A stretch of 64,000 nt of DNA from Escherichia coli (GTDB lineage Bacteria > Pseudomonadota > Gammaproteobacteria > Enterobacterales > Enterobacteriaceae): NCBI GenBank assembly GCA_025336685.1, contig GCA_025336685.1_4717.1. One strand, given 5' to 3'. The number at the start of each line of letters is the position of its first letter. Positions within the stretch are counted from its first letter, which is position 1. The notes under the pieces are model-generated. The model made no database searches. It was given only the letters and a program-made list of their open reading frames with translations, and was not told where the DNA came from. This document shows positions 14,041 to 61,841 of this stretch, piece by piece. The position numbers and the translations under genes were made by a program.

Positions 14041-14090
14041 CCTTCCTTCCCCGGCCTTGATGGCTAGGGAAGGAAGGTTTATGGTTTATT
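14041..14090. terminator. bidirectional intrinsic terminator (stem CCTTCCTTCCC / GGGAAGGAAGG, loop CGGCCTTGATGGCTA, then TTTATGGTTTATTT; A9 run on the other side)
   Basis: Read directly; sits between convergent genes 13125..14015 (+) and 14090..14629 (-). Confidence 0.75.
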
Positions 14091-14629
14091 TACTGTTTGT
14101 TCTTAGCTTCGCGAATGAAAATAACGTCAGGATATTCTTGAGATTCAATGAATTCAGGATTACGATAACGACGAATATGACGCATCGCCGTACAGGCAAG
14201 TTTGTAAAGATGTTCCTCCTCACGTTGCGTTAATAACATCAGCTGTGTGTCTGGAATCACGAATGGAAGTCTTTCATTCACATATTCCCGGAGGTCATCG
14301 AGATCATCATGATGAATACCCTCTGAGAGTTTATATAACGCTTCCAGCAGTTCTAATCCGCCAAACTGGTAACTTCCTATTGTCGTCTTAAACAATGCGC
14401 CAGAACGCGTGGTGGATGCTCTATCGGCAACATCGTACTGTTCCAACACATATCCGTAGACCATGCTACGTCGATCCAGTGTATCTGTAACGAGATTACG
14501 CCATCGTTCCAGTCTTTTGAGCGCCTTGTCGATAGAGTAAACGATCATGCCGTGCTCATCTAACTCTTCTGCGATACCCATTAGTTCGGTGTTGTTCGGT
14601 TTTGCTGCGCCGATAAGAAAAACACTCAT
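14090..14629 (-). CDS. hypothetical protein (179 aa)
   Basis: ORF track; 1-nt overlap with upstream DUF488-like gene. Confidence 0.5.
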   Translation of the reverse strand: MSVFLIGAAKPNNTELMGIAEELDEHGMIVYSIDKALKRLERWRNLVTDTLDRRSMVYGYVLEQYDVADRASTTRSGALFKTTIGSYQFGGLELLEALYKLSEGIHHDDLDDLREYVNERLPFVIPDTQLMLLTQREEEHLYKLACTAMRHIRRYRNPEFIESQEYPDVIFIREAKNKQ

Positions 14630-15090
14630 TACTCAAACTCCTTATTCCAAAACTCGATTAACGAATCGAGCTGTTCCTTACTGGTTATCTCACCTCCCTT
14701 AACAAAATGAAATCGTTCTTGAATCGCGATCTTTTCAAGGATATCGGTAAGCAAATGACGATGACAGAAATTTCCTGCAGGACAATAACACCCTAACACC
14801 ATAACCGGATGGGAGAATAAAGACAACCATTCCGATGTATGATCAACAAAGCTTTTACGCATGAGTGCGTAGTAGCCTGCGGTATATTCATCCTCGGTTA
14901 ACGTTTTTGATTTGATTCCTGTAACAAGTTCCCATGAAGGTGCGTAGAGCGGGTTACCTGTTTTCACCGTTGTGTCCAGTAGGAACGCCCGTGTGTCTGA
15001 AAGCCAACGATATTTAGCTAATTGAAGGGTGTATAAAAACATAGCACTAACCCCCAAAGGATAAAAATAAAACCTTAACATAACCACCAC
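14629..15090 (-). CDS. DUF488-like protein
   Basis: 153 aa; C-terminal motif VMVLGCYCPAGNFCHRHLLTDIL matches the remembered LLCxC...CHR..L signature of DUF488; upstream APSWEL resembles the family's APS.eL segment. Recalled from memory, not searched. Confidence 0.5.
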   Translation of the reverse strand: MVVMLRFYFYPLGVSAMFLYTLQLAKYRWLSDTRAFLLDTTVKTGNPLYAPSWELVTGIKSKTLTEDEYTAGYYALMRKSFVDHTSEWLSLFSHPVMVLGCYCPAGNFCHRHLLTDILEKIAIQERFHFVKGGEITSKEQLDSLIEFWNKEFE

Positions 15091-15147
15091 CGCAACCCCA
15101 TTACAGGGCTACGGTGGGGTCATACAGAGAGACGTGTTATGTTACAA

Positions 15148-15627
15148 TCAGTCTTTCAACAGCTCGGCTGCATACGCACTGATGTTGTCGCGAATATGCT
15201 TAACCTGAGTTGTCGGGAAAGATTTCTTATACGCGGTGGTCAGACGTCCGTAAACCTGTTTCTTCTCGTTAGAGCCGAAACCAACTTCAGCGCTACGTTG
15301 AACTGTTGCAGACACAACGTCTTTGCCCAGCGGCAGCGTCACAGAAACAACGTCAACCTGCTTGTTATCCGCCATGAACTGCGCGCCAACACGGCCAACC
15401 GCCAGACCGTGAGCCAGACCGATATCGGTGGTCAGTTTCTGTGCTTTTTCCAGGATTTCTTTTTCTTCCGGCGTTACCAGAGTACCCAGGAAATCACTGC
15501 CCAGCTTCTGGCTACCTGATTCGTCCAGTTTGAGGCCAGCGGCGATTTTATCAGAAAGGGCCTGAACTTCCGGACGTACGTTAGAAGTGGTTTCAGTTGC
15601 TACGGTGGTTTCTACAGCTTCAGACAT
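15148..15627 (-). CDS. hypothetical protein (159 aa)
   Basis: ORF track; preceded by CTATATTAC promoter-like motif at 15751..15759. Confidence 0.5.
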   Translation of the reverse strand: MSEAVETTVATETTSNVRPEVQALSDKIAAGLKLDESGSQKLGSDFLGTLVTPEEKEILEKAQKLTTDIGLAHGLAVGRVGAQFMADNKQVDVVSVTLPLGKDVVSATVQRSAEVGFGSNEKKQVYGRLTTAYKKSFPTTQVKHIRDNISAYAAELLKD

Positions 15628-15750
15628 GTTAATACTCCAATTAGTTTTTTCGATCGATCAAAAGGATAAAATCAGAAGATTCTTTCTTCATAGGGAAAAC
15701 ACAAGTCGGTTAAGGTTTACTTCTTAAACTCCTTGCGTTCTATCAGTTAG

Positions 15751-15759
15751 GTAATATAG
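15751..15759 (-). promoter_or_regulatory. promoter-like motif GGNCTATATTACC (copy 1)
   Basis: Exact 9-mer CTATATTAC on minus strand with GG two bases upstream, about 125 nt upstream of the 15627 start; same motif recurs at 23736, 40045 and 53165. Confidence 0.35.
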
Positions 15760-15762
15760 ACC

Positions 15763-16560
15763 TCAACTTTTTTCCAATAATGCCGCAACGTTCCGCGCGA
15801 AACGAATAACTTTGTAATTGCGGGTTTGTTTGACATCTTCTCCATCACTATCATCTTCGGACGGATCTTCCCACATGAAGTCTTGTTCGTCCGCTTTCTG
15901 TAAGTAGTGGTATAACTGCACCATGCTGCGTGCGGTTGGAGAGATAGCGCGAAGTTCGTCTAAATCTTCATCGGTAAGCAGAACATGCGGTGAACGCAGT
16001 GGTTCCATTGCCGTATTACACAGCAGACGAATAAGCAGATCGACACACGGAATAACGGAACTTGGTGAGGCGATTTCTGGGTGTAGTGTATAACCCCAGT
16101 ACACGCTGTTAAAATAGGCCAATACCGCAGGTAGTGAAGGATGTTCCATCACACGACCAATTTGCTGTCTTACAATAGATGCACGATCGTTCAGTACATC
16201 GAGAGTAATTTGTTGCGGTTCCATAACAGCGAGTGACATACCGTACGCATCGGCTACGCCAAGGATTTCATGAAGAGCCGAACGCTCTTCTTCTGCGGAT
16301 GTTGTCCCGATCGCTTTACGTCCAGCAAGTTCGATTAGCATCGGTGAAACAGTTTCTTTAACCTCGTTTAAAGAAGCCTGGTAAGCATGTTTGTGAAGGT
16401 ACAGTGTCCACGCTAATGCGCGCTCAGCTGCATGAAGCAGATCGACATAAGACTGTTCTTGATAGCATGGTCCGTACACGCTCACCGCAAGCTTGGTGGC
16501 TTTCTCGGAAGCTTGCATAATAGCATCAGGTGATTTAGGCATATCGCGTTCTTCTTGCAT
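15763..16560 (-). CDS. hypothetical protein (265 aa)
   Basis: ORF track. Confidence 0.5.
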   Translation of the reverse strand: MQEERDMPKSPDAIMQASEKATKLAVSVYGPCYQEQSYVDLLHAAERALAWTLYLHKHAYQASLNEVKETVSPMLIELAGRKAIGTTSAEEERSALHEILGVADAYGMSLAVMEPQQITLDVLNDRASIVRQQIGRVMEHPSLPAVLAYFNSVYWGYTLHPEIASPSSVIPCVDLLIRLLCNTAMEPLRSPHVLLTDEDLDELRAISPTARSMVQLYHYLQKADEQDFMWEDPSEDDSDGEDVKQTRNYKVIRFARNVAALLEKS

Positions 16561-16662
16561 CTTTTAAATTCCTACTTAACAATAAAGTTTATATACGGCG
16601 TATGTATCCGTAGAATAATGAGTTCTGGTAAGATCTTACATCAAAATGACGGCATAAAAAGT

Positions 16663-16690
16663 ACCTCCTTACCCATGTGGGTAAGGAGGT
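16663..16690 (-). terminator. hairpin terminator (ACCTCCTTACC / GGTAAGGAGGT) followed on minus strand by T5
   Basis: Read directly; downstream of the minus-strand gene 16842..17651, inside a 280-nt non-coding gap. Confidence 0.55.
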
Positions 16691-16841
16691 TCGTCCATCA
16701 CGACGGAAGGACGTTATGTGACGCGGTGTCCATAACGGCCCTGGTAGCAGGCATTAAAAAGATAACAAAAGGATGTAAGTTGAGCTAAACCACCTAAATA
16801 CGGTAACGATTACTTCCGTACACAATATAACGTAACATCTT

Positions 16842-17651
16842 TTACCACTGATTAAAGCTGCCCGCTTTAACGATGTCACAACGCAGATGGTTACATAACT
16901 GATCCAGGAAGACAACCGGACTGTCACCGGACAACATGGCCAGTGCGTGCTGACCGCCAGAACGAACAACCAGATCATCAACCATTGGCGCAGTAATCGG
17001 GAGATCGTACGCGTCCATGATTGCTTTGGCTTCCTGTTCTACGTCTTTCTGAAACCCTTCCATCGTCGGAGAGTCATATTTGGTTGCAAACTCGATCCCA
17101 GGCAAGTTAACGTAATCGTAAGTCATCACGCGGGTCATAACGCGACGGCGCTCACGTTGCCAGATCTGAGGATCGGTTAACGCACGAACCGAAAAACACA
17201 CGTTCACCAGAGGCGTTTCAAAATCCTTACGTAACGCATCACCGTACGGACCACAAGGAATAACGTCCCCCATCACCATCACGACAGGACGACCACGACG
17301 ATCGCGTCCTGCTTCTTCCAACCAAATCTTAGAAAAGCAATGACTCACTTTGGTTTCTTCGATTCGTAACGCTCGCTGTAAAAAGCTGGTGGCATCCTGA
17401 CCGATCTCTGGTTTAGGGTGACCGTATTCACCTTTCAGCGAACGATTGCGTGCGTTTGTTTGCAGTAAGCTGTTTTCCAGGAACAACGGTTTCGAACGCT
17501 CAAGTTCGTAATATTCTTCGGTATTGTTAAAACAGTTAAACCCACCGATAACACAGGTGTAGGCACCGTCAGCGTTAGGACGGATAATACCTTTTTTATT
17601 CACACCGAGATAACTGGTGCAAACAAGATTACTAATTGGTGGTTGCATCAT
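16842..17651 (-). CDS. hypothetical protein (269 aa)
   Basis: ORF track. Confidence 0.5.
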   Translation of the reverse strand: MMQPPISNLVCTSYLGVNKKGIIRPNADGAYTCVIGGFNCFNNTEEYYELERSKPLFLENSLLQTNARNRSLKGEYGHPKPEIGQDATSFLQRALRIEETKVSHCFSKIWLEEAGRDRRGRPVVMVMGDVIPCGPYGDALRKDFETPLVNVCFSVRALTDPQIWQRERRRVMTRVMTYDYVNLPGIEFATKYDSPTMEGFQKDVEQEAKAIMDAYDLPITAPMVDDLVVRSGGQHALAMLSGDSPVVFLDQLCNHLRCDIVKAGSFNQW

Positions 17652-17729
17652 AACCCCTTTATAAGCAACTGAATGAAAAACGTTACCTTCCCGCTTTTTA
17701 TATCAAGAAGGCGACACGTAAGCGTTATA

Positions 17730-18461
17730 TCACCATTCATACGATCCGGCGCACTGATGTCCCAACAGCACCAATGCGTCGTCTTTGGCGGCCAGGTATT
17801 TTTCTAACGTTATCCGTGAAACAGACACATTGGAGAAATCCATCACACCTAAGCGATGATCGTAATGGTTAATTTGCATCCGGTAATAACCTTTCTTTAC
17901 CACCAAAAACTCACCCTGACGCAACCATAACGGAACGTTGTCCACCTCCGCATGGATATAAAACACCGGACATTCTGTCGTAACGGAGTTTTCCTTCCCA
18001 TCACTATCCGTGATCTTCCCTTTGGGAACAGCCGCGATAAAACATTCTCCGATACGTTCGGTTTGATACCCGTTGGGATAGCGTGGATCGTGAAATAGCC
18101 AATGCTCATCGCTGATATCAACATCGGATAACAGCGTACGATGTGGACGTAAGGCGATGTCAAACGGAACACGATAGATAATGTACCCGCCTAACCAATG
18201 CGCTAAGTGACCACCGGAATAATACTGCTTGATTGCGGTACTGTAACCGTATACACAACCCATCAAACTGCTGGATACACAGATCCTTGGAAACGATCCA
18301 TCCTCCATACGCAAGGTACGTTGAGGAATACGCGGCATCATCGTTTTCAGTTCGGTATCGGTGCTAATATGCAATAAACCGAAAGGAAGCGTTTTACTCG
18401 GGACCCACGCGCAACGTTCCATAATCGCTCTTGGGACAATAGTCTCGATAGACGATAACAT
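17730..18461 (-). CDS. hypothetical protein (243 aa)
   Basis: ORF track. Confidence 0.5.
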   Translation of the reverse strand: MLSSIETIVPRAIMERCAWVPSKTLPFGLLHISTDTELKTMMPRIPQRTLRMEDGSFPRICVSSSLMGCVYGYSTAIKQYYSGGHLAHWLGGYIIYRVPFDIALRPHRTLLSDVDISDEHWLFHDPRYPNGYQTERIGECFIAAVPKGKITDSDGKENSVTTECPVFYIHAEVDNVPLWLRQGEFLVVKKGYYRMQINHYDHRLGVMDFSNVSVSRITLEKYLAAKDDALVLLGHQCAGSYEW

Positions 18462-18462
18462 A

Positions 18463-21040: not shown

Positions 21041-22255
21041 GTCGTTAAAGTAAATATCAACAGCTCGTTCCGTTGCGTAGAGGAGACCAAGATTCACAGT
21101 CCCAACCACTTCCGGTGAACCGATGATACGGTTAGCGATACTGGTGCCACTGAAGATAGCATCAAGGGTGTGCCCGTCTTCGGTTTTGTTCACACCATGA
21201 CCCACGGAAGAGACAACGGATTTCGCTTGTGCTGCGAAGGTACCCTTATCACCCATCCCCGCACCAAGGTCGTAACGCATGAAAATACGGATGGCGATCT
21301 GGTTCTCGCCTAACGGATTACCGTCTATTCTCACGTTACTGTTGTTGATACGCCCCGTCGTTGCTTCATTGAGTTTCAGTTCCTTGACGCGTTTAGCTCG
21401 CGCTTTATCTGCGTCACCGACGAGCGCCGCCATGGTTTCACTCATATCCTCAATCTGAGCGCGGTACAGCACATCGATCTGTACAACTTCACCATGAACG
21501 TCAGCACGTGGGTTATACTGACTCATACGACGTAATGCTTCAACGGCTTCCTGACTCTCATCACTCAGATCAGTTGCGATCGGTTCTTCCAGTGTTGCAA
21601 GAATAGTTCGAGGTTCAACATGATCGCCGATTTTTACGAGACCACGAATGTTGAGATGGGCGTCAACAATGAGCGTGCGGCTCTTAATCGATGGTGTTAC
21701 GAGACGATCGGCAAGATTGTCGAAGATATACGAACTGTCCTCGTGAGTCTCTGGAATATCCAGAATACCGACAAGAGACAGAACACCTGCGCGCCAAACA
21801 ACCTGACCTGGGTTCCACCAGTCGCGTTTAAAATAAAGACGATGGAAAACTACCACATCTTGATCCTTAACGCGATCCCCAACTTTATAATCGGTAATGA
21901 GGTCATGCGGATAATACTTACCTGGTCCTTTCCCGATTATCGTACCGAGTTGGAAAACCTCTTCTCCTAACTCTGGATCATCGTATTGTATCGTAAGCGC
22001 AGTTTTGGTGACCTTCTTCACAACACCATCGCCTTGGGCGGCAGCTGCGAAGAGTTTACCAACGCGATGCGCGATAACGGTCTCGCCACCAGTACGCCAT
22101 GGTTGTACATCGTAACCTTCAGCAGCAATCATGCGGTTGTGTTGGATGCCTATAAATACGAGACGCTTTGGCGGAATCCAGCAAAATACATTTACTGTGC
22201 GTCCGGATTGTTCAGATAAGGTCGTTAATCTTATCCCGGAGGCGATGATAGGCAC
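21032..22255 (-). CDS. putative RNA polymerase beta-like subunit fragment (middle segment)
   Basis: 407 aa; GDKGTFAAQAKSVV resembles beta GDKxAGRHGNKGV and a following G-T-x-x-D-x-I segment resembles beta PVDIVLNPLGVPSRMNIGQ (weak, by eye); GTG start preceded by GGGAGG SD. Confidence 0.3.
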   Translation of the reverse strand: MPIIASGIRLTTLSEQSGRTVNVFCWIPPKRLVFIGIQHNRMIAAEGYDVQPWRTGGETVIAHRVGKLFAAAAQGDGVVKKVTKTALTIQYDDPELGEEVFQLGTIIGKGPGKYYPHDLITDYKVGDRVKDQDVVVFHRLYFKRDWWNPGQVVWRAGVLSLVGILDIPETHEDSSYIFDNLADRLVTPSIKSRTLIVDAHLNIRGLVKIGDHVEPRTILATLEEPIATDLSDESQEAVEALRRMSQYNPRADVHGEVVQIDVLYRAQIEDMSETMAALVGDADKARAKRVKELKLNEATTGRINNSNVRIDGNPLGENQIAIRIFMRYDLGAGMGDKGTFAAQAKSVVSSVGHGVNKTEDGHTLDAIFSGTSIANRIIGSPEVVGTVNLGLLYATERAVDIYFNDAK

Positions 22256-22483
22256 ACCGCCTCCCGCTTACGCTCTCACGTAAGAGCAGACTATATCACA
22301 TCTCGTCTTAGGCTTGTTTTCACAAGTCAAACGGTGCTTCTTCAGCACCTCAACGAGAGTTCACTTCTTCCCAGCGCATCCAGCGCCATTCTCTTATCCA
22401 AGGAGAATGCCTCACTCGAGGGGTACAGGGGGATGAATCCCTTAGTCGTTGAACCGTCACCCTAGAACGTTTCACAACGATCC
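22256..22483 (-). ncRNA. structured non-coding region between HNH gene and beta-like fragment (possible group I intron 3' portion)
   Basis: 228 nt with stops in all frames of interest; on the minus-strand transcript at least four short hairpins (GGUGCU-GAAGAA-GCACC, CUUGU-GAAAA-ACAAG, CUUACG-UGAGAG-CGUAAG, CAUUCUC-N-GAGAAUG); catalytic-core elements not identified. Confidence 0.2.
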
Positions 22484-23695
22484 TTAGGCGATTGGCTGCG
22501 GATTACCCTTGGCCTGCGGACCACGAACTTTTGTCGCGGTCAACTCTTCATTTTTAAAGCCTGCTTTACGAGCAATACGTCTCGCTTCTCGCACGTCTAA
22601 CGTTTCCGTTTCCGCTTTGGCTGAAGGCAGCATTGGGCGTCCTCGCAATTCAATGAATCTCGTCCATACGTCACCGTATAAACGGACCCGCTCTTTGTAA
22701 ACAGAATAGTAAATATAACGTTTTCCGTCAGGGAATTTAGTCATCCCATCGGACTTCAAACGGTAATTGAGTAACGTAGTAGATATACCCATTTCTTCGG
22801 CGCAATCAACGGCTGAAAGGTACAATAGCGGTACATCATTTTCAGGAATGACGACAATAGCACGTTTGTTGGTTGTCTTCTCCAACTCCAGGATACTATC
22901 TTCGACTTCCCGCCACGGCGTCTCATCAGTAACCCATTTAACTTGATAACAGCCATTAACGACAGGTTGGTTCTTGTCGTTAACGTACATCGACGCAGTG
23001 GGTAACTTAACACCAATGTGATTAGCGAATTCAGTCAATGATTCGAAAAGATGAATCTCTTTTGTTATCGTTGACCTTGCAATCACGCCCTTACTCCCCG
23101 TATCCGTCAACGTTGCTAACTCGTATTTGGTAGGAATACGCCACGGTTCATCGCCGTAATCTTTGCGGTACTGCTTACGTTCAGGAAACGCTCGCTGTTT
23201 ACCTCTATAGACACGATGATGAATGAAGTCGATATTCACACCAAGATCGCGTGCCGCTTCCGTCATGGATGGATATCTAGTTACAACACCGGTGTCAACA
23301 TCACGAACCTGAATAGGTTTACCGTAAGCAGCAATAGAACGTTTACGCATGTTCATAATGCGGGCATGCTGATTGTTCTCTTTCTGTGTAACCCATTCAA
23401 GATTGTCATTCTCTGTGTTACCGTCGGGATCAAGGTAGTTATTAAGTCTGTTGCCGTCCTTGTGGTTCACATGGAGCAAATGCGCATCATCGATGTTACG
23501 GAACGTTAACATTAGAAGTCTATGCATGGAACGGTAAACCAATGTTCCATCGTGACCTCGAAACGAATAACGATAATACCCAGCAATGATGATGGGCAAA
23601 TATTCAAACTTCGATTCCTTGTTACGCAATGTTCCATCTATGGATATCTCCAGGAACGGGAATTCCGGTACGGTCTTAAATACCTTCTCACTCAT
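22484..23695 (-). CDS. HNH homing endonuclease with NUMOD/IENR-like DNA-binding repeats
   Basis: 403 aa; HNH motif HHVNHKDGNRLNNYLDPDGNTENDNLEWVTQKENNQHA; three helix-turn-helix-like repeats (YPSMTEAARDLGVN, FESLTEFANHIGVK, YLSAVDCAEEMGIS); AGAGGA SD; own promoter-like motif upstream. Confidence 0.85.
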   Translation of the reverse strand: MSEKVFKTVPEFPFLEISIDGTLRNKESKFEYLPIIIAGYYRYSFRGHDGTLVYRSMHRLLMLTFRNIDDAHLLHVNHKDGNRLNNYLDPDGNTENDNLEWVTQKENNQHARIMNMRKRSIAAYGKPIQVRDVDTGVVTRYPSMTEAARDLGVNIDFIHHRVYRGKQRAFPERKQYRKDYGDEPWRIPTKYELATLTDTGSKGVIARSTITKEIHLFESLTEFANHIGVKLPTASMYVNDKNQPVVNGCYQVKWVTDETPWREVEDSILELEKTTNKRAIVVIPENDVPLLYLSAVDCAEEMGISTTLLNYRLKSDGMTKFPDGKRYIYYSVYKERVRLYGDVWTRFIELRGRPMLPSAKAETETLDVREARRIARKAGFKNEELTATKVRGPQAKGNPQPIA

Positions 23696-23735
23696 TGACT
23701 ATATTCCTCTTGTGCAGTGATATTAACTACACTTT

Positions 23736-23744
23736 CGTAATATA
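23736..23744 (-). promoter_or_regulatory. promoter-like motif GGNCTATATTACC (copy 2)
   Basis: Exact CTATATTAC on minus strand about 40 nt upstream of the HNH ATG, in the 75-nt gap after the 1069 aa ORF. Confidence 0.35.
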
Positions 23745-23770
23745 GCCTTAATTCTGTTTACATTGAAGCC

Positions 23771-26700
23771 TTAATCATCTCTATCAGCAGCAGGTACTGC
23801 AAGTGCTGATGTACTCATTATTGACGAGCTACCATCCGTTTTCTCGTCGTAGGGTTTCGTTTCACCGTATACAGACACAATGTTTGCGTTAGGTGCGAGG
23901 TAAGCAGAAATACCTACATCCCCACTATCCTTCGTACCTTCGGATACAACACCAATGTCCGACTTGTCGTATTCACGATCGCGTGCGCGTCGAAGCGATG
24001 TCTTTGAACGCCCCCCGATACCGGTCATCGTTGCTTCTTCACCCTGCTTGATATCCAGCATCGGGTTGGTTTCATCGATCACGATGGAAGCGCTGTCGTC
24101 GAGAATTTGGTTCCAGACACTCACTGGACTGATTGAGATTTTCTGGCGGTTTCCTTGACTGCTGTTCTCGTTTTGACGAATAGCGCTAACCAGGTCCTTA
24201 TACACCAGTTCGGCGAACTTATCGTACGTTTTAAAACGTTGGTAGTTCACATCGTTCGTGTTAGGTGCCCAGTCATCCAGAAGCAGTTCAACAGCACGCA
24301 GTAACAACATGGCGAAATCGGTAGGTTCTCCCATGTTCTGTAGCAACGTACGGCTCACCGGATCGATGAAAAGACGCTCCATGAGTTCAAGTTCGCGTAA
24401 ATGGCGAACCTTAAGTCCAGCACCATCGACAACGTTAAAATAGATATCTCGATTGTCAAAAGCACCGCGAGCGTAACCGATGTAGTTACGGTACTCGTTG
24501 AACCCACCCAACAGCAACGTCGTCATGCGATCGTCTTTACTGAAGATCAAACTTTCGTCGTCAAAGCTCACCGCGAATTCATCGGGTGCTAGACCCATAC
24601 GAGAGCCGCGAGGTACCGTACGATAGTTCGCTTTAAGGTGTTCTAATAACGGGGTAAGCCCACCCAGATAACTTAGAACAACACCGACCGGAATACGTAC
24701 ACCCATGAATTCAAGATCGGCGGCTTCGATCGGCATCTTAGCCGCATTGATACCGAAGAAATCAGGGAACGTCCCTACAGGTGTTGGTGTTTGTCCTGAC
24801 TGACAGATATAGAGCTGATTGCGTTCATCGATTGCTAAGAATTCACCCAACGTGTTACGTGCAAACGTCAGGAGCCCTTCGGCTAACTGTTCGTTGAACC
24901 GATCTTCCCCAATGAACTCCGGCAATGTCTTTATATCGAGACGTATATCCCAATCAGCGAATTGGATTTGGGTATAGTTGCGTGCAAGCACTGCGAAGTA
25001 ATACGGGACTTTGACAGCCGGATCAAAGACGTTACCGCGTTTTAACGTGGTTAAGGGTGAGGACTTATCGTAATACATCGCCGTAAGTTGACGTGTTAGC
25101 CAACGACCCGCATTATTAACGACGCGCTCTGAACGTTTAACAAACACCTTACCGTAGGCGGTACTCAATGCAACTTCGGATGACGATACCTTTCTAATAG
25201 GTTTATCGACGCGTTGTTTACGCATCCGGTACTTGATGCCGTTAACGACATAAATGCCGTCCTTACGAACCTTCGGTAACATCACCGGGAACGTGGTCGG
25301 GACACCGCCTACGGGGGCCAGTTTAATCGTGATGACTTGATAATCCCCCATCACGTCAACAACATCTTCGACTTTATATCCCGTGACTGGGTAACCTGCC
25401 TGCTGTACCGCAACAACAGCAGCTGCGATGTCCTTTTGCATTACGTGTTCGACGTAATGTTTATCCCACACCGCAAGCGTCGATTTACATAAGCTCTTAT
25501 CGACGATAACGTCCGCTTCCGGCATAACCTTTGCGGGAGCTAATTTCGCGGCTTTTGGTTTAACTTCAACATACTCAGCAAGTGTTAATCCAGAACCGTC
25601 GGGTGCTTCGATTTCATGGATGGCGTCAGCGTTACGCATCGCTGCTTTATATTGGACGCCACTTAACTGCCCCGCATCCGCCAGATCGCCCGCGCGTACC
25701 AACACCGCATCCGATAACGACTGAATATACTCACCGTGTGTTTTTGGTAACGTTGTCGCGTCAAAGACATCAACCTTTTCTTCTTCGGTATCGTCAGTAA
25801 CGACTTCGAAGAGATCGTCGGTAATGTCCTGATCTTCATCAGGTTGGAAATCCGGTTGTACTTCTACCCCGGGTACTTCACGGACATCTTCGAACGTGCG
25901 TTCTACAACGGCGTTCCATGCATCAGCGTCATCGTCTTCATCCGACCCACCGACCAACTCCGCTTCTAACTCATCGGGGTCAAGAACAGTGGCCAGATCC
26001 TCACCGTTAGGAAGCACGACGTCACGATCGTCGTACTCCGCATCCGGGTTGTCGGTAAGAATATCTCGCTCTTGACGAAGAACCTGTTCCTCTTCTTGTT
26101 TCTGTTCTTCTTCATTCGCGCTCTGCGACCACAAACGTGTTACCGCCATCATCCAACGACGTTGGAAGGTTTCAAGTGTCGTTTTGTCGAGTTCTTCCCC
26201 TTCCTTTACAAGCCCGGTACGCCATTCCTCCAGCAGGCCGAGATTCAACGTAAAGAAGTACACACCGTCTGTAAATACAACGTTAAGCTTATCCAGCGTG
26301 GCCCTGTCTAACGAAGCCATCGTGCTGTTCTCACGATCGGTTCCCAACCAGCGGAAGAAGTCAAAGAACGACAGCTCCTCCGGTGTGGCGAAATTCATGA
26401 GGTTGTTACGGGTCGGTGCCTGTTGTGTGGTACGCATCAACGAAATCTTCGGCAATGTTGACGGTAAACGGAACAACAAAAAGTGTTGACGATCGCTTTG
26501 TTGTGCGATTTCGTTGGCTTTCGACCAAATTGTTTTACGTACGTTGAACCATTCATCATACCAACGGGTGAGCGTTGGACGATAGATGTACATGTGGTTA
26601 AGATGCGCGTAGTTAGCAACGATCTGAGCGTTGATGTTTTTCTCCACCGTACTTAGATCGGTAACCAAACGAAAACGACGATGCGATGCACGATAATCCA

Positions 26701-26983: not shown

Positions 26984-28630
26984 TTAGGCTCCACGAGGTC
27001 CCGTTAAGTTGCGTAATAGGAACGCAACCGTATCGTAACCAATATCAATGTTGAATTTATTTTTACCACTTACCCAGAAAGCTCGCTTCTTGTGCGAGTT
27101 GGTAATTTCGTCAATGGCTTCCATGGAATAAAGAACGTTAACCGAGACCGTATCACCATCAAAGTCCCCGCCAAGTCCGGCGAGGTATGGGGCAGGGACA
27201 ATAGTCGTTTCTACGAACGAAGCATTAGGTAACCAGTCAGGGTATTCCCATGCGATAAATCGTTCATCCGTTATTGGTTCCCAGTTACTATCCAGTTCGG
27301 TTTTCGGTTTTGCGGCGACGGTTGTACGCGCATAACAGGTTAACGGGATAACGGATTGCATACCCGATACCGGATAACGTGTTACCATTGCAGCCAGGTT
27401 ATTCCAGTACTTATATCCGGCGATGTACACTAATTCGGTATACGTGATGGGGTGAACATCCGCACCAGGTTTATTCAACATTTCTGGGGGTAATTCACTC
27501 ATACCACGGAACAGTCGAAACGAATCATTGTTCACATAGACGAGGCAAAGATAACGTCCATTAACCATGATAGGTTCGTTACGCACGCCTGGATCGCTTA
27601 AGGTGTTCAATAAACGTTCTATTCCGTCCCATGTCGTAAAGTCATCGATGGTGTCTGGATCAAGCGTGACGCGTTCACGTTCCATCGTTTCGGTATCGAT
27701 AAGTTCAACTTCTGTAACATCACGGACAAATATTTCCTGCAAAATCCCCGTACGTAACGCATGTTGCGTCACGGGTAGGGCGGCTTTGCTCATCTGGTAT
27801 AACCCTAACTGAACTGCAGTACAGGAAGGCTGGTTGGGCGATCCTAGTACCTCCGTTGTGGGGTTAATTGCCGAAATAACGTTACGGGTTGAGTTCCAAA
27901 CACGACGTGAGCCGAACTTCCCTTGAAAGATCCCTTTCTTACCTTGGAACATATCCAACAACAAAGCGTAGATATCGTTAAATGTTCTCTGTAAGCTCCA
28001 GCGTTGGCCGTCGTAAACGGGATCGGAATAATCTTTTAATCCATCGGGGACGGTGTTAGAAATTGCAAGGAAACGACGATACAACTCCGTGATTTCTTGC
28101 TCGCTTTCATACCCGCCTTCTTTTACTTCTATTTCACGTAAGCCCGCAGGTAAAACCAGTAAGTGACGGGTCATCGCTTTGAACATGTTCTCTTCGACAA
28201 CTTTAATTCGTAGCTCTCGTTGAGCTGAACCCGTTGAAACGAACTTGATATCCGCGACGTGTTGTGCAAAGAACCCGTACCCTGTCTGTCCTGTTAACGC
28301 ATCAGACGCAACGAAATCGCGTTGTTCAGGATCCCACCGAGCGTACGCCTTCCCCGACATGATATCACCATAGAGGTGTTTTAATCGAATGAGGCGGTCG
28401 TAAATGACAGGATGCAGGATTTCAACTTTGCATTCAATCACCGCAAATCGACGGTCTCGATCTTCACTACCTGCACTACCAAAGATGGTGTAAGAATAGA
28501 AACCATCATCGTGGAAATTACCGGTGCTTGGGTCACGAATGCTCATGCTCGTGATCTTGGGGAGAAAACGTAACTGTTGTTTATCGAGGTGTAAAATACT
28601 AATATTAAACGGCTCTCTGACTTTAGCCAT
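26984..28630 (-). CDS. RNA polymerase beta'-like subunit, N-terminal fragment
   Basis: Catalytic motif GDFDGDTVSVNV (beta' NADFDGDQMAVHV) near C-terminus; QGKFGSRRVWNSTRNVISAINP resembles beta' GKRVDYSGRSVIVVGP; ORF track starts at 28672 but ATG at 28630 has an AGAGGAG SD. Confidence 0.65.
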   Translation of the reverse strand: MAKVREPFNISILHLDKQQLRFLPKITSMSIRDPSTGNFHDDGFYSYTIFGSAGSEDRDRRFAVIECKVEILHPVIYDRLIRLKHLYGDIMSGKAYARWDPEQRDFVASDALTGQTGYGFFAQHVADIKFVSTGSAQRELRIKVVEENMFKAMTRHLLVLPAGLREIEVKEGGYESEQEITELYRRFLAISNTVPDGLKDYSDPVYDGQRWSLQRTFNDIYALLLDMFQGKKGIFQGKFGSRRVWNSTRNVISAINPTTEVLGSPNQPSCTAVQLGLYQMSKAALPVTQHALRTGILQEIFVRDVTEVELIDTETMERERVTLDPDTIDDFTTWDGIERLLNTLSDPGVRNEPIMVNGRYLCLVYVNNDSFRLFRGMSELPPEMLNKPGADVHPITYTELVYIAGYKYWNNLAAMVTRYPVSGMQSVIPLTCYARTTVAAKPKTELDSNWEPITDERFIAWEYPDWLPNASFVETTIVPAPYLAGLGGDFDGDTVSVNVLYSMEAIDEITNSHKKRAFWVSGKNKFNIDIGYDTVAFLLRNLTGPRGA

Positions 28631-34800: not shown

Positions 34801-35534
34801 TATTACGCGATCCCGCAAAACGGGGTGACGTACGCCAAGTTCGTTATCTGGTTAACGGTGGTTATAACGGATTACGTGACGTTGAACAGCGCTCTGCTTA
34901 TTGGATTCAGGCGGCTAAGAACGGCACCCTGAAGAAAATGATGGACGAGTTATCGGGGTCAACATCAGACGATCAAGCTGAAGGACCGACCACCGCCGAA
35001 CAGGTGAAGAATGAAGCGGCCCAAGAGGCGAACGGAACACCGACGGTAAGCAACGATCCGCAAGCCCCGGCATCTTCTACCACCCCTGAAGCTAAACCGT
35101 CTGCGGCTGCCGGTACGGCTCCAGCACCCGGAGAAGCATCACCAACGCCTGTAAGTTTCGAGACAGCAAAAGCTACGGCAGGACAACCGACATCAACTCC
35201 GGCACTTAGCGATTTGCCGTCAAACCCTGGTGCAAATCGAGGGATATCGGTTCCGAATACGCCTGCACAGGTCGCGCAGTCTGCGACACAAACATCGGCT
35301 GCGAGTGAGAACTTCTACGGTAGCGCAGGTGAAATTCTCCGACAGCAGCTGACCACGCAGCAGAACATCGAGAAGAACACCGGTAGAACGAATGAACTTA
35401 TTTCGGAATTAATCCAAGCCGTTAAGGGTTCTTCTATCGGTAAGGGTTCTGCAAGTCCTTCTCAACAACAGGCGATGTCGCTACCTAATCGTCCGCAAGG
35501 AATCTCTCCAACACGGACAAGGTACGCGCAGTAG
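31827..35534 (+). CDS. tape-measure-like virion protein with GH19-type lysozyme domain
   Basis: 1235 aa; Gly-rich hydrophobic repeats (GGLGAVLSGGASLTGLLGKGL..., about 32520..32760); lysozyme/chitinase-19-like motifs NIEHESGNYS and YLGRGFIQVTGKANY (about 34380..34920); Ala/Pro/Ser/Thr-rich C-terminal tail. Confidence 0.65.
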   Translation: MLKRGAVEIYKQLDKTPDVYVKGESTPRLLSMVLAAGGYFRRSDGQTVKNLEDIDGDVVDAQGNVVLTLADMQKGLVDKYGKAIRRLKEKLINFGVKAFTLPLTLLRKTKDILKTLPGKTVNGLRRMGLNFQSPDALLVGTTSSMVDRLDAIYQLLDQRMPGGDRDYRDWNGDGVREGSLEDLKRKRAAKENGKDDTGKDSNKGEEKEKKRGLLGSLFDMLGDTALGKRLMASPLGKILGGLGAVLSGGASLTGLLGKGLISGTGALVKGGLSAAGWLGRGALMAGGAALNAVGGLSGLGAFLISPVGLAIAGGALAAYAGWKIYQHFAEKPDPMQKLRLIAYGAKGDDKDFNKKLLATETYLTDHVVMTGDTIGFDPKADSEKILEIWELSLEDSDRMNEWKRWYLHRFIPVFARAYKLWKEHMPDEKKYMEMDKYPNGENKVKWSEAFIWPSDSPDGPYYVEANPLGSSGATRYIAGQDVKTLMLKQLEAIKKEYQNQIKQYSHDEAIADWSRMSDTQRKSVAPNALRGQKASLRFNDKRYNSAGAKGRQKLDATAVIESVDRRGRKWVAGGYIDELTSLRVRAYGIKVPLLSQIKVLMELEDAVEPGVVAEGKGVKYGGDLVALYKKFATKFGRDVNSKQDQDIWFAWMNNRFLPVFLTYYQHVSDMGGQGLLSDMVQNLKDSQRWEIGEALVATQYRDEKGALQPVWSWNSCGFSGTEANTTSSSTKSQLDLLKEYADKEKVREKNAEASQEDTDKLSKIQELMMKQAGYEKKDGVWQKKSRITGGMSNAEANYNPNGNRVGASSFTASATSSAGLGSTGDLTGLPNMGLQKPATGPGPEAGRRALVKSAVKRGITDPMEMAMFLANIEHESGNYSHVREGNYKTPERLKQVFPYKFRDVQDAAQTISMGPEAVFERVYGNRKDLGNTQKGDGAKYLGRGFIQVTGKANYARLSKTLNKDLVSDPTYLETPEGAAEGSVAWWLNRGNVLRDPAKRGDVRQVRYLVNGGYNGLRDVEQRSAYWIQAAKNGTLKKMMDELSGSTSDDQAEGPTTAEQVKNEAAQEANGTPTVSNDPQAPASSTTPEAKPSAAAGTAPAPGEASPTPVSFETAKATAGQPTSTPALSDLPSNPGANRGISVPNTPAQVAQSATQTSAASENFYGSAGEILRQQLTTQQNIEKNTGRTNELISELIQAVKGSSIGKGSASPSQQQAMSLPNRPQGISPTRTRYAQ

Positions 35535-35545
35535 TCATTAGTTAA

Positions 35546-35575
35546 GGGCGGGAGATTCCCGCCCTCTTCTTGAGG
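35546..35575 (+). terminator. intrinsic terminator (GGGCGGGA / TCCCGCCC hairpin then TCTTCTTG)
   Basis: Read directly, 12 nt after the stop of 31827..35534. Confidence 0.55.
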
Positions 35576-37740: not shown

Positions 37741-37772
37741 CCCTCTCCCTTCCCTGATGGGTTGGGAGAGGG
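37741..37772. terminator. hairpin (CCCTCTCCC / GGGAGAGGG, loop TTCCCTGATGGGTT) between convergent genes
   Basis: Read directly; paralogous to the hairpin at 50601..50633. Confidence 0.5.
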
Positions 37773-45964: not shown

Positions 45965-46016
45965 ACCCACCCTACTACCCCGTTAAGGGCGGTAGGGTGG
46001 GATAAGGTTTATTTGC
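45965..46016. terminator. bidirectional terminator (CCCACCCTAC / GTAGGGTGGG then ATAAGGTTTATTT)
   Basis: Read directly, between convergent genes. Confidence 0.55.
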
Positions 46017-50600: not shown

Positions 50601-50640
50601 CCCTCCTCCTTCCCATGTTGGGTTGGAGGAGGGTTATGCC
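50601..50640 (+). terminator. hairpin (CCCTCCTCC / GGAGGAGGG, loop TTCCCATGTTGGGTT) after plus gene
   Basis: Read directly; paralog of 37741..37772. Confidence 0.5.
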
Positions 50641-54752: not shown

Positions 54753-54784
54753 CATCCTCCCAACCCGTAAGGGAAGGGAGGATG
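54753..54784. terminator. hairpin (CATCCTCCC ... GGGAGGATG with inner CCC-GTAA-GGG) between convergent genes
   Basis: Read directly; T5 on the minus-strand side. Confidence 0.5.
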
Positions 54785-55443: not shown

Positions 55444-55447
55444 TTAA

Positions 55448-56629: not shown

Positions 56630-56661
56630 AACGTTTTCCTTCTTGGGTTTTGTACATGTTG

Positions 56662-58088: not shown

Positions 58089-58106
58089 CAGAAATCCTTA
58101 TTTATC

Positions 58107-60626
58107 TTAAATAATCGTGACATGTTCGTTATACGTTTCAGGGAGAATGATGTTCGTTTTGTCGAGAACCATACACTCGGCTTTACGGAATGATGCGTGA
58201 TTGATAACATAGTGGCTGATGAACCACACTTGGCTTACACGGTGACCATCGACCAAACGACGAACAAAATCCATGGCATTAGATTGGTGCTGCGGATCAA
58301 ATGTTGATGCGAATTCATCCAGCATCAAGGGATAATCCGTAAACCCTTTGTAATGCATCATCGCGATGATAAACGCGATATTGATAATTTCCTTTTGCCC
58401 CTTACTCCCATAAACAATATCTTTTCGCGGTGTCGGATACTTCTCGGTTAGCAGCGGGAAACGATAATTCAATCCTTGCGCATCGATAGCACAAGGGAGT
58501 ATCTGAAGTTGGTATTCCCAAATACTCGCAATGATACCGTTCATGTATTCGACGAACGCGTTGATTGGACCAGCAATTGTTTCAGCAATCAGGCCGTTAG
58601 ATGGACTTAACTCATCCAGAACAAGTTGTGTGTAACTGAGTTGTTCTTCCACCTCTTTTTGCGTTGTTTCCAGCTGAGCCAAAAGCTGTTGGTCGGTTTT
58701 AGCTTCCTGTAACTGCTGTTCGACATGACTTATTCGTCGAACCGTATCAGACATCGCAGCGCGTAATGATTTCGTGTAGAGGTGTTGCAGATACTCCAAC
58801 CACAGTTGTGTTAACGCTTTATCGCTACTATCAGAACGCACCTGGTCTTCCATAATCGCCGTAATGGTTTCCAATCTACCTTCCGTTGCTGTGATGGCTT
58901 GGGTCAATCGTTCAACGGTCGTTAGCAACTCCGTCCTGTTCTTATAAAGCAGTTCTCGGCGTTGCTGTAATGGTTCAACATCAACAGCTTGTACACGTTC
59001 GAGCATGCCTTGAAGATGCTTCCGTTCTTGTTCGGCTTGGGTGTAACGCGCAAGCTTCTCAAATGCGAGCAGCCAATCATTAATGATTCCAATACTGCGA
59101 AACCCTAATCCGTTTTTACGTCCTTCTTCCAGCAGATTGTCCCACATGGGTTTAATGGCGTAATAATCTTTCGTCCAACGTGTTAACTGACGATGCTGCT
59201 CCATCCAAAGCGTATAACGCTGAACCTTCTCACTCAGCTCAGCTAACGATTTCTCTTGTTCTTCAACCCAAGCACGGCCCTTCTGAATACGTTGTTCGAT
59301 GCTTGCTTTGCTGGTCTTTTCTGTCTCACCAACATGAAAGCGATAATTGCATTTTGGGCAGCTGGTCTGGGGTTGATGGTTAAGGTGGTCAAGATGCGCT
59401 TCCAAGTCAGCTAACGCATGTTTCGCGTTACGCAAACGCATTCGTGCCGCCTCTTCCTCCTTGATGTAAGCTTCAGCATCGTAAACATGATAGGTGTTGT
59501 CGGTATCAATCCATTCTTGCAATAGTTCCGTTAACGGAGCCTGAACTTGCGTGAGCTGTTGTAAACAAACCGCGGCGTCCAGATTCATCGTTAAAAGCTC
59601 ACCTGGATGATCATGCTGGAGTTGTTCGTCCAAACGGGCAAGGCGGGCTTTAATCTGATCGATATCGCCTTCTCCAGACTGTTTCAACTGGTCAAGGATA
59701 TTATCGATACCCAACAGCTCGTCAACCTGACTTTCGAGTTTCGCATTCGCATTCGCGAGTTGCTCTCTTAGTTCAGCCAGATTCCGCTGTTCTTGTTGCG
59801 ATGTTCCTCCTTGGTAACGAACAACTGCACGAAGAAGCTCGCGATTAAAATGATGGGCACGTTGTGTGGATTCCAGAAGCTGTCGTTGATCGACATCGCT
59901 ATCGAATAACGGCAATCCCATCATCGCTTCGAGCGCTGAGCGTTGCTGCTTTAACTCTGCTTCCAATCCCTGGTGGTCGGTTCCAGTGTATTTCGCTTCA
60001 ATTCGCTGTGACGTTTCAACCAACTTATTCAATGTATGCTCATTCACCGCTTTCAGTGAACGTACTTGTTGCTTAACCACCTGAAACAACTCAAGCGCAT
60101 AATCGACGTTAACCGGACATATCTGTGTTAATCGTTCGCGTCGTTTCATCGGTCCCATTTCGGTGAACTGGTAAGCTGTTTCGTAACCTAACAACAAACG
60201 AATGGTGTCGTCATTAAGTTCGAAATGTTCTTCGATCAGTTTCCACTGGGCTGGTTGTGTACCACCACCGTTCAGGTTCTCGCTGTCGTTAACGTAGAAC
60301 TCGTGCTTAAACCCTTTTTCTAAACGACTGATAAGACGGTATTGCTTATTACGGTGTTCGCAGCGGTACTCGTAATACCCATCTTTATCAAAATCGGCGC
60401 GCTCGGGAACGGTTGGATACAGCAAAGGCAGTAGACTACTCTTACCCGAACCGTTACTACCTAAAATGAGTTGTACGGGATTATCTGGCCGGATGACCAG
60501 CTCCCGAATCATCCCGGTATCAAAACGATTGAATCCACGTAAGTGGAGATAGGTGCATCGCATGCTATGATAATCCTTCTTCGATACCTTCTGAACCCGT
60601 GGTTCAGAATGCGAAGCTGAAGCCAT
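58107..60626 (-). CDS. SbcC/Rad50-like SMC-family ATPase
   Basis: 839 aa; N-terminal Walker A LILGSNGSGKSS; long Gln/Glu/Leu-rich coiled-coil; central CPKC zinc-hook-like motif; C-terminal Walker B PLMLDEF and following ISHY. Confidence 0.7.
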   Translation of the reverse strand: MASASHSEPRVQKVSKKDYHSMRCTYLHLRGFNRFDTGMIRELVIRPDNPVQLILGSNGSGKSSLLPLLYPTVPERADFDKDGYYEYRCEHRNKQYRLISRLEKGFKHEFYVNDSENLNGGGTQPAQWKLIEEHFELNDDTIRLLLGYETAYQFTEMGPMKRRERLTQICPVNVDYALELFQVVKQQVRSLKAVNEHTLNKLVETSQRIEAKYTGTDHQGLEAELKQQRSALEAMMGLPLFDSDVDQRQLLESTQRAHHFNRELLRAVVRYQGGTSQQEQRNLAELREQLANANAKLESQVDELLGIDNILDQLKQSGEGDIDQIKARLARLDEQLQHDHPGELLTMNLDAAVCLQQLTQVQAPLTELLQEWIDTDNTYHVYDAEAYIKEEEAARMRLRNAKHALADLEAHLDHLNHQPQTSCPKCNYRFHVGETEKTSKASIEQRIQKGRAWVEEQEKSLAELSEKVQRYTLWMEQHRQLTRWTKDYYAIKPMWDNLLEEGRKNGLGFRSIGIINDWLLAFEKLARYTQAEQERKHLQGMLERVQAVDVEPLQQRRELLYKNRTELLTTVERLTQAITATEGRLETITAIMEDQVRSDSSDKALTQLWLEYLQHLYTKSLRAAMSDTVRRISHVEQQLQEAKTDQQLLAQLETTQKEVEEQLSYTQLVLDELSPSNGLIAETIAGPINAFVEYMNGIIASIWEYQLQILPCAIDAQGLNYRFPLLTEKYPTPRKDIVYGSKGQKEIINIAFIIAMMHYKGFTDYPLMLDEFASTFDPQHQSNAMDFVRRLVDGHRVSQVWFISHYVINHASFRKAECMVLDKTNIILPETYNEHVTII

Positions 60627-60677
60627 ACTTCAGCGTTATTTTCTATATCGTTATTTAAATCAGTAGGAGATTACAGC

Positions 60678-61766
60678 ATGAGCGATCTGGCAACAGACAA
60701 TCGCACAAAAGGGAGTCAGTTAGCTCCAGACAGCAACGTAAGCGTTTTCCGTATCTTTGCCTTGGGTACCGTTGCTGCCGACTTTTCCAATAAAAGTCTG
60801 GAGGAAGATCCTAACCAGGCGCTGGAGGTCTTTCTTGACGAGATGATGTCAGGTGCTGACGGGAAAGTTGAAGCGGCGGGAAGCGTGAAAGAAGTTAGTG
60901 CAACAGACGCTCAAGGGAACAGCTATACGGCAAAAGCGGCAACAACAACCAGCGTGCAGTGTTACTGGTTACCCTTTGGTAGTAATCGGATGACAGCGCC
61001 TAACTTGAGGAAAGGTCAGCGTGTGGTGGTCTGGCGTACTGCCGATGAAGAACAACTCTATTGGCAGCCCAAAGGAGGGGATAGTGAGCTGATGACCATG
61101 GAATCGGTTATCCTCACCGTCAGTGCACGTCCTAGCGCTAAGAAGGACCGTAAATCGATTTCAACGGAAGACTGCTATTACCTAATGGTTGATACCTTTC
61201 TTAAGAAAGCGGTTATCGGTACAAGCGCACAGCTTGGTGAAGTTACCCAAGTCTACATGGAACTTAATCTGGACGAGGGTTACTTACAGGTTGCGGACAG
61301 CGTCCATCAAAACCTACTATTGCTCCATTTTGTCGAGCATATGCTGCGATACCAAAACCAGGACGACAGCATTATCGACGTAACAAAAAAGAACATCACA
61401 TTCCAATGCGAGGATACGCTCAAAGCAATCGCTAAGAACGATATCCGAATGAAAGCAAAAAATATTTATACGGAATGTGAGAACTTTGAACGTACCAGCA
61501 AAACAGAAAGCGTTACGAGTCAGAATGTTTCTTTGAAATGCGATCGCTACACCGCGCAAGTATCAGGACAAACCATATTCAAATGTCCGAATACGGTATT
61601 CACCGGAGCCGTGAGTTTCACTGGTGAAGACGGAAACACGATGACATTGAACGGTAACTTCATACACGTCGCGGGATCTTGGCGTTCACCAAGCGGAACA
61701 AACGTATACACTCACGACCACGGTGGCGTTAAATCCGGTAGTAGTAGAACCGACCCGTTTCAATAA
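60678..61766 (+). CDS. hypothetical protein (362 aa)
   Basis: Lone plus-strand ORF followed by a strong bidirectional terminator. Confidence 0.5.
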   Translation: MSDLATDNRTKGSQLAPDSNVSVFRIFALGTVAADFSNKSLEEDPNQALEVFLDEMMSGADGKVEAAGSVKEVSATDAQGNSYTAKAATTTSVQCYWLPFGSNRMTAPNLRKGQRVVVWRTADEEQLYWQPKGGDSELMTMESVILTVSARPSAKKDRKSISTEDCYYLMVDTFLKKAVIGTSAQLGEVTQVYMELNLDEGYLQVADSVHQNLLLLHFVEHMLRYQNQDDSIIDVTKKNITFQCEDTLKAIAKNDIRMKAKNIYTECENFERTSKTESVTSQNVSLKCDRYTAQVSGQTIFKCPNTVFTGAVSFTGEDGNTMTLNGNFIHVAGSWRSPSGTNVYTHDHGGVKSGSSRTDPFQ

Positions 61767-61789
61767 AACAAAAAAGAAATACAACATAG

Positions 61790-61841
61790 CCTCCTTCCCC
61801 GGCCTTGGTGGCTAGGGAAGGAGGATTATAGTTTATTTATT
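61790..61841. terminator. bidirectional intrinsic terminator (CCTCCTTCCC / GGGAAGGAGG, loop CGGCCTTGGTGGCTA, then ATTATAGTTTATTTATT)
   Basis: Read directly; near-duplicate of the 14041..14090 element, including the loop and T-rich tail. Confidence 0.75.

Follow-up and report, generated by a model that had tools for sequence, protein, structure and literature searches.

Why does one stretch of DNA carry the same short hairpin module twice, each time between two convergent genes? The stretch in question (64,000 nucleotides of contig GCA_025336685.1_4717.1 in the Escherichia coli assembly GCA_025336685.1; hereafter, the window) matches Escherichia phage vB_EcoM_Goslar at 96.3% identity and is colinear with positions 186,181-237,305 and then 1-12,537 of that genome. 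Goslar is a nucleus-forming jumbo phage of 237 kb that infects E. coli. The two modules lie at 14041-14092 (copy 1) and 61790-61839 (copy 2). An earlier account made from the letters of the window (the sequence-only reading) described them as near-identical terminator modules, and proposed that their conserved loop marks a duplicated or mobile regulatory cassette, or a recognition site for a protein or RNA. We find that each copy is probably a chimallivirus-type transcription terminator that needs no factor and works in both directions, and probably also a protective 3' hairpin. What is new is that the inner 15 nt of the hairpin are exactly reverse-complemented between near-identical genomes; otherwise, the element is ordinary.

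The repeat itself is confirmed. A 26-nt core, CCCCGGCCTTGRTGGCTAGGGAAGGA, occurs at 14049-14074 and at 61797-61822, on the plus strand in each case, and nowhere else in the window; it has no match in 100 dinucleotide-preserving shuffles. Each copy is also flanked by open reading frames (ORFs) on opposite strands, as had been described: copy 1 lies between convergent ORFs 13125-14015 (plus) and 14090-14629 (minus), and copy 2 between 60678-61766 (plus) and 61840-62277 (minus). The stop codons of these genes are 12-25 nt from the copies. A local alignment spans both entire intergenic spacers (14019-14092 and 61767-61839), and the similarity beyond the hairpin and its TTAT-GTTTATTTA tail is mostly A-rich low-complexity sequence. 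The proteins flanking copy 1 and copy 2 are unrelated and non-paralogous, and the spacer alone is common to both sites. This rules out a duplication that took in neighboring genes. Nor do these two copies complete the set: each genome has a third site, and each of the three is conserved across all the relatives that we examined.

The supposed 15-nt loop is mostly helix. The sequence-only reading was right that the two copies differ here by one base, but folding shows a C·A mismatch, then a 4-bp upper helix (GGCC/GGCU), and at the tip an apical loop of 5 nt, which holds the differing base. On either strand, the hairpin thus has two tiers: a lower helix of 10-11 bp, the mismatch, the upper helix, and an apical loop of UUGAU or UUGGU. 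The total helix length is 15-16 bp. In copy 1, the 5' arm of the lower stem, CCTTCCTTCCC (14041-14051), pairs with the 3' arm, GGGAAGGAAGG (14067-14077). Between them, the inner segment (14052-14066) reads C, GGCC, TTGAT, GGCT, A, with one G·U pair and the apical loop at 14057-14061. The plus-strand tail, TTTATGGTTTAT followed by TTA (14078-14092), holds a TTAT(G) signal, and its bases 14090-14092 are the complement of the convergent gene's stop codon. The A-rich 5' flank (14019-14040) joins an extended outer pairing and, on the minus strand, reads as the U-rich GAGGUUAAUAUGCUUUUUUUUU after the hairpin. In copy 2, the arms CCTCCTTCCC (61790-61799) and GGGAAGGAGG (61815-61824) enclose C, GGCC, TTGGT, GGCT, A (61800-61814; apical loop 61805-61809), and are followed by the U-rich plus-strand tail ATTATAGTTTATTTA (61825-61839), again with the TTAT signal.

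Both copies are much more stable than shuffled sequences on either strand (z = -4.1 to -6.3). Folding energies of the bare hairpins lie between -26.5 and -28.0 kcal/mol. Turning the inner segment around shifts them by 0.6 kcal/mol in this comparison, and overall by no more than 1 kcal/mol. The lower stem has only pyrimidines in its 5' arm and only purines in its 3' arm. Such arms keep their polarity on reverse complementation, and therefore both convergent transcripts receive an equivalent hairpin. Each transcript would fold into it and then run into a TTAT or U-rich tail.

Hairpins of this design form a genome-wide family. Counting those with a pure-pyrimidine 5' arm of at least 7 nt and a purine 3' arm, we find 37 in Goslar and 7 in the window, and none in five shuffled windows. 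The motif TAT[GA] follows within 8 nt in 16 of the 37 Goslar hairpins on the plus strand and 21 of 37 on the minus strand, against a background of 2.4%. According to the Goslar annotation, a hairpin of this kind stands at most of the convergent junctions checked. About 18 of the Goslar hairpins are two-tiered. On our reading of the annotation, convergent junctions hold 12 of these 18, and the other six stand between co-directional minus-strand genes. Most read (C/T)9, AA-CCC-GTAA-GGG-AA, (G/A)9, while the focal type, C-GGCC-TTGAY-GGCT-A, occurs at three Goslar sites (200229-200265, 11186-11220, and 84366-84396 of MK327938.1). In the larger, sister subfamily, seven of the nine pairs of the lower stem have changed on both sides, and the covariation score is reached by none of 500 shuffles; 98.3% of cells are paired, a percentage inflated by picking the set on at least 7 paired bases.

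These features closely resemble terminators already mapped in two Pseudomonas phages. In phiKZ, ONT-cappable-seq defined 133 termination regions (Putzeys et al. 2024, PMC10914365). Sixty-one terminators share the consensus BCCYCCCCHWWDGGGRRGGBYTTATKYYGT, a hairpin and then TTAT that coincides with primary-transcript 3' ends, and six regions between convergent genes are bidirectional (PMC10914365). In 201phi2-1, 132 transcript ends were mapped, of which 15 are bidirectional. The motif resembles that of phiKZ, and elongated hairpins were the strongest terminators in vivo in reporter assays (PMC11512511). Reading the phiKZ hairpins directly, we find the same cATAA-[Y arm-loop-R arm]-TTATG layout as in the window. 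One of them, which lies between convergent genes, reads cataa-GCCCTCCC-attgc-GGGAGGGC-attatg. Both sets have a C- or pyrimidine-rich 5' arm and a G- or purine-rich 3' arm, TTAT(G) right past the stem, and cATAA before it at convergent sites. Both are found genome-wide at gene 3' ends, with bidirectional forms between convergent genes, and the phages belong to the same family, Chimalliviridae. The focal copies differ in having a longer lower stem, an inner part of 15 nt with a second small helix and a mismatch in place of a 4-nt loop, and only 1 nt between stem and TTAT. Furthermore, the phiKZ and 201phi2-1 terminators have been mapped at their 3' ends, whereas the Goslar-like elements are known here from sequence. 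We would therefore class the focal copies as a structural variant that works like phiKZ-type terminators.

The element also shares features with canonical bidirectional Rho-independent terminators, namely a GC-rich hairpin at a convergent junction, preceded by an A-rich flank and followed by a T-rich one, so that either strand reads as a hairpin and a U-rich tail. Its U-tracts, however, are interrupted (UUUAUGG and AUUAUAG) and, on the minus strand, displaced by 5-14 nt. The plus strand has TTAT after the stem in both copies (GG-T-TTATGG and GG-A-TTATAG), and the minus strand has an approximate match (GG-GAGGTTAATATG and GG-CTATG). In the first 8 nt past the stem on the plus strand, copy 1 has five U (UUUAUGGU) and copy 2 has four (AUUAUAGU); the minus-strand counts are two (GAGGUUAA) and four (CUAUGUUG). 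We took at least five U in the 8 nt directly after a GC-rich hairpin as a canonical U-tract. Unlike canonical terminators, these elements would be answered by the phage's own polymerases and not by host RNA polymerase. Phages related to phiKZ have their own split multisubunit RNA polymerases.

Several observations weigh against reading the copies as terminators of this type. On the minus strand, 5-14 nt separate the stem from the U-rich run, a poor arrangement by the standard of canonical intrinsic terminators. A generic terminator scan made no call on either copy, owing to its loop limit of 8 nt. The full phiKZ consensus has no match in the window at up to three mismatches, and its 3' half matches four other terminator hairpins of the window and neither focal copy. 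The focal copies miss it because of their 15-nt inner part and 1-nt spacer. The selection behind the pairing percentage in the sister subfamily counts on the same side, as does the invariance of the upper helix and mismatch described below, which leaves room for an added sequence-specific role. Finally, our literature search found no transcript 3'-end data for Goslar-like phages, so we infer termination here. A terminator module between convergent genes, as the sequence-only reading had it, fits all of the sequence evidence and the chimallivirus literature.

The inner 15 nt occur in both orientations. At both orthologous sites, the inner segment of Goslar is the reverse complement of that in the window, with unchanged flanks, and all combinations of orientation at sites 1 and 2 (those of copies 1 and 2) are found across genomes. 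Among ten assemblies that share an identical 179-amino acid (aa) neighbor at site 1, five carry CCGGCCTTGATGGCTAGG and five its exact reverse complement. Opposite orientations occur in sequences as close as 13 differences over 3548 aligned columns, and a neighbor-joining tree of the flanks requires a minimum of five flips among 11 sequences. The columns of the copy 1 segment that vary across genomes are 14052, 14053, 14057, 14059, 14061, 14065, and 14066. At site 2, orientation differs between genomes with 99.5% identical flanks. The segment is reverse-complemented in Goslar and many close relatives, some of them with a 4-nt loop, and flips recur inside the lineage that has this shorter loop. 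An apparent link between orientation and a T or C at one loop base, seen in the first four genomes, vanished with more genomes.

Inversion extends to other hairpins with perfect arms. We find flips at 35545-35565 (gat/atc), 16663-16690, 60589-60609, 63568-63585, 37741-37772, and 54753-54784, and at several Goslar family sites in two relatives. A neighboring hairpin with imperfect arms (15087-15117) was never flipped in the site 1 comparison. In the phiKZ clade, a terminator loop ttat is inverted to ataa in six of eight relatives, and terminators with a UUCG loop are never inverted. The phiKZ terminator sites examined (L086) were 27659-27680, 25214-25234, and 34917-34937. Two phiKZ terminators have identical arms and mutually inverted loops, attgc and gcaat. 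In Goslar or IMG/VR relatives, loops or inner parts are exact reverse complements of those in the window (e.g., gat/atc, atgt/acat, and cgt/acg), while hairpins within coding sequence show substitutions only.

The pattern resembles loop inversion by inter-strand template switching (PMC8794818). Its closest counterparts are plastid spacers such as trnH-psbA (PMC2903610) and the template-switch loop inversions in ribosomal RNA (rRNA) and microRNA hairpins (Monttinen and Loytynoja 2022, PMC8794818). In all of these, an exact reverse complement lies between perfect inverted-repeat arms, and the inversions are recurrent, at odds with phylogeny, and polymorphic among very close relatives. The present case differs in its phage setting, at (putative) transcription terminators, and in being unusually frequent, at about 50:50 among genomes 0.4-3% apart. 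The inverted unit here is also a structured 15-nt mini-helix and not a plain loop. We suggest that perfect inverted-repeat arms allow the inner 15 nt to invert often, with inter-strand template switching or recombination of one arm with the other as the likeliest route. Because the element would work in both directions, such inversion would be nearly neutral.

Invertons, the invertible promoter switches driven by recombinases, likewise present an inverted-repeat-flanked segment in both orientations. However, the segment here is 15 nt between arms of 10-11 bp, a length that could neither hold a promoter nor allow recombinase synapsis. Its two orientations are energetically equivalent, and small ordinary hairpin loops also flip. 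We noticed no invertase or recombinase among the annotated genes neighboring either site. The element is thus unlikely to be an inverton. A bolder possibility, which we regard as improbable, is that the inner 15 nt flip so fast that orientation is effectively random among 99.6% identical genomes, and perhaps mixed within single phage stocks. In that case, active extrusion and processing of these hairpins or cruciforms might accompany chimallivirus replication or recombination. Or the flip might be functional, toggling which convergent transcript carries the sequence-invariant GGCC-UUGAU-GGCU face.

The near-identity of the copies might appear to require a function for the conserved loop. In two relatives (L034 and L035), the hairpin at Goslar 93445-93476 (L002) is replaced by a different family member: one compensatory stem pair and three loop bases have changed (loop AGCA to GTAA), and for 300 nt to either side the flanks have 94.7-100% identity. 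The change is a patch replacement from a paralogous terminator, which suggests conversion. Common descent together with patch conversion between paralogous hairpins better explains the identity of the copies. With selection on the helices, conversion would account for near-identity between sites in the absence of any sequence-specific function of the loop. The similarity of the flanks has a partial explanation of its own. The GGTTTATTT tail common to both copies also follows another two-tier hairpin, CCCACCCTAC...GTAGGGTGGG (45966-46001), at a convergent junction whose Goslar orthologue (232609-232644) is an annotated terminator. Flank similarity is therefore partly a family trait. Taken together, we propose that each copy is where two convergent transcription units, late or structural, come to their end in a nucleus-forming jumbo phage of the Goslar type, and that the two copies of the window and the third genomic copy are one subtype of a genome-wide terminator family like those mapped in phiKZ and 201phi2-1.

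A protective role at the 3' end could also be the main one. The hairpin might act chiefly after transcription, as a stabilizer against exonucleases or as an RNase III-like processing site, while polymerases stop elsewhere or by collision. The long helix with its internal mismatch and the weak or displaced U-tracts of the minus-strand tails are what such a role might produce, and a position at the 3' end fits either role. Yet TTAT(G) is enriched right after family hairpins on both strands, primary transcripts of phiKZ have their 3' ends at the equivalent motif (PMC10914365), and the 201phi2-1 elements terminated in reporter assays (PMC11512511). We consider a mainly post-transcriptional role unlikely, although it is compatible with termination.

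Slightly less probable still is a recognition function, in which a phage protein or RNA (e.g., an antitermination, processing, or mRNA-export factor) would recognize the conserved upper helix, mismatch, and loop, in addition to termination or in its place. The GGCC/GGCT helix and C·A mismatch do not change in any instance across three sites and more than 30 assemblies, which include about 30 loci fetched through their flanking proteins. Similarly, AACCC-GTAA-GGGAA is nearly invariant in the sister subfamily despite covariation in the lower stems, and phiKZ terminators are conserved in sequence and not in structure alone (PMC10914365). Against this, the segment inverts freely between near-identical genomes, and the motif switches from one convergent transcript to the other under no visible constraint. 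Since either orientation is found in near-identical genomes, no transcript strand consistently carries the inner motif. The apical loop varies among five forms in relatives (TTGAT, TTGAC, TTGGT, TTGGC, and TGAT), and patch conversion among paralogues can keep sequence uniform in the absence of selection. The element also has no Rfam family match: a scan of the whole window with Rfam 15 gave no match at the gathering threshold, and relaxed scans gave generic hairpin matches alone (17-19 bits versus thresholds of 88-110 bits). Searches likewise found no transfer RNA (tRNA), transfer-messenger RNA (tmRNA), or Rfam family identity. The chimallivirus RNA-binding protein ChmC binds near start codons with no detectable motif, as enhanced crosslinking and immunoprecipitation (eCLIP) revealed (PMC11077065), and we rejected it as a binding partner. 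A strand-specific recognition site is thus weakened by free inversion and a variable apical loop. Of the argument from loop conservation in the sequence-only reading, what survives is the invariant helix and mismatch; the loop itself is mostly helix, and the inner segment occurs in either orientation.

The inversions could also be the trace of an element that acts as DNA, such as a cruciform-forming site for replication, recombination, or packaging. Perfect arms of 10-11 bp, very frequent inversion, and the RuvC-like and SbcC-like proteins encoded near copy 2 are in keeping with this idea. However, ordinary small terminator hairpins flip too, both here and in the phiKZ clade, and the neighboring hairpin with imperfect arms never does, so that flipping looks like a by-product of perfect inverted repeats. 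The sites lie strictly at gene 3' ends and have transcription-type tails. We therefore regard a DNA-level element as very unlikely.

The distribution of the element bears on whether it is mobile, and it answers the question of how often the module occurs in the genome and in related phages. Exact-pattern matches to the core come from Goslar-like contigs, of which three are IMG/VR genomes and about eight are metagenomic genomes or fragments, and no match there lies outside the same three sites. Pattern scans favor intact cores, and we therefore also fetched loci through exact flanking proteins, 10 for site 1 and 20 for site 2. The element is present in all of these roughly 30 loci. Among relatives, we saw sites 1 and 2 neither empty nor polymorphic for presence, no new site turned up, and we noticed no trace of a target-site duplication in the flanks. 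The core has no match among 20,395 E. coli records or 185,579 species genomes (GTDB), which rules out a host origin. A single exact match beyond Goslar-like contigs, in an IMG/VR fragment of 1171 nt (L010), has no lower stem and is about what we would expect by chance, and was set aside. Thus, although a near-identical core stands at three unrelated sites between non-paralogous genes, and one relative has an extra sister-family hairpin beside an insertion of about 500 nt, a mobile or recently duplicated palindromic cassette (MITE- or REP-like) spreading between intergenic sites is the least credible of these explanations, with just three copies per genome at fixed positions and none in hosts.

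Other members of the sister family in the window are found at 37741-37772 (CCCTCTCCC, TTCCC-TGAT-GGGTT, GGGAGAGGG; at a convergent junction, with the inner part flipped relative to Goslar), at 50601-50633 (CCCTCCTCC, TTCCC-ATGTT-GGGTT, GGAGGAGGG, then TTATGCCGT), and at 54753-54784 (CATCCTCCC, AACCC-GTAA-GGGAA, GGGAGGATG; at a convergent junction). The last is flipped or "perfected" in some relatives. In one of these (L077), the AA/AA internal loop has turned into TT/AA pairs. Six Logan contigs (among L080-L085 and L077) end inside this hairpin, and we rejected a reading of these ends as mixed orientations. They ended there independently because an identical 32-nt hairpin also occurs at Goslar 174267, an exact paralogous repeat (k = 31). 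In relative L034, positions ~3300-3620 hold a standard family hairpin with about 500 nt of extra sequence, where Goslar (86600-86900) has a different, longer pyrimidine/purine hairpin. Terminators seem to travel with gene-sized insertions or deletions. The inner motif CCAACCCGTRAGGGAAGG also occurs within longer hairpins in IMG/VR contigs unrelated to Goslar at the DNA level (L040, at 4945-4962, L042, L032, and L054). The L040 hairpin carries a TTATGCTG tail, and on that example, the two-tier design may be more widespread than Goslar-like phages.

Copy 1 ends a tail sheath/tube unit, as marked by Pfam domains in related contigs. The upstream gene (13125-14015, plus strand) encodes a tail-tube-like protein of 296 aa and follows a tail sheath gene (11037-13109). 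An identical gene in related contigs carries PF23806 (Phage_TTP_14), and its neighbor PF20961 (phiKZ_gp29PR). The downstream gene (14090-14629, minus strand) encodes a 179-aa protein with no Pfam match, and the identical protein is present in 110 blocks of public assemblies. Copy 2 is preceded by the orthologue of Goslar_00013 (60678-61766, plus strand; 362 aa), the Goslar gene being annotated as weakly similar to a structural protein, and is followed by a minus-strand gene (61840-62277) of 145 aa in the ORF list and 129 aa as called in related contigs. The Goslar GenBank record already marks the copy 2 orthologue (11186-11220) as a putative transcriptional terminator, and has no annotation at the copy 1 orthologue. 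We also considered small minus-strand ORFs, in which the purine arm resembles a Shine-Dalgarno sequence before an ATG (GGGAGGTTAATATG in copy 1 and GGAGGCTATG in copy 2). These were ruled out, as they are antisense to real genes and mutually dissimilar, and the Goslar copy 2 flank has, by eye, no ATG there.

The window also differs from Goslar in its introns. A group I intron at 22267-22709 on the minus strand (RF00028; 49.4 bits versus a gathering score of 50; E = 5e-11) fell 0.6 bit short in the whole-window Rfam scan. It is accompanied by a NUMOD1/HNH homing-endonuclease ORF (22484-23695, minus strand), both within 22170-23804. Goslar lacks this 1.6 kb of intron and ORF, which interrupts the orthologue of Goslar_00228. 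Conversely, an intron and HNH gene of Goslar (211748-213798) are missing from the window (junction 27157/27165). The window phage and Goslar thus differ in which intron sites are occupied.

Here, we extend to the E. coli model chimallivirus Goslar a conserved-sequence terminator design that had so far been mapped only in the Pseudomonas phages phiKZ and 201phi2-1. We also define a two-tier, naturally bidirectional variant of this design, which could serve as a compact two-way insulator. The flips mimic clusters of 7 substitutions in alignments, and can mislead single-nucleotide polymorphism calling and phylogenies of Goslar-like phages. Inversion fits a bidirectional terminator that is indifferent to orientation. 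The frequent, exact inversion of the hairpin top is a clean natural experiment, in which orientation appears irrelevant for function.

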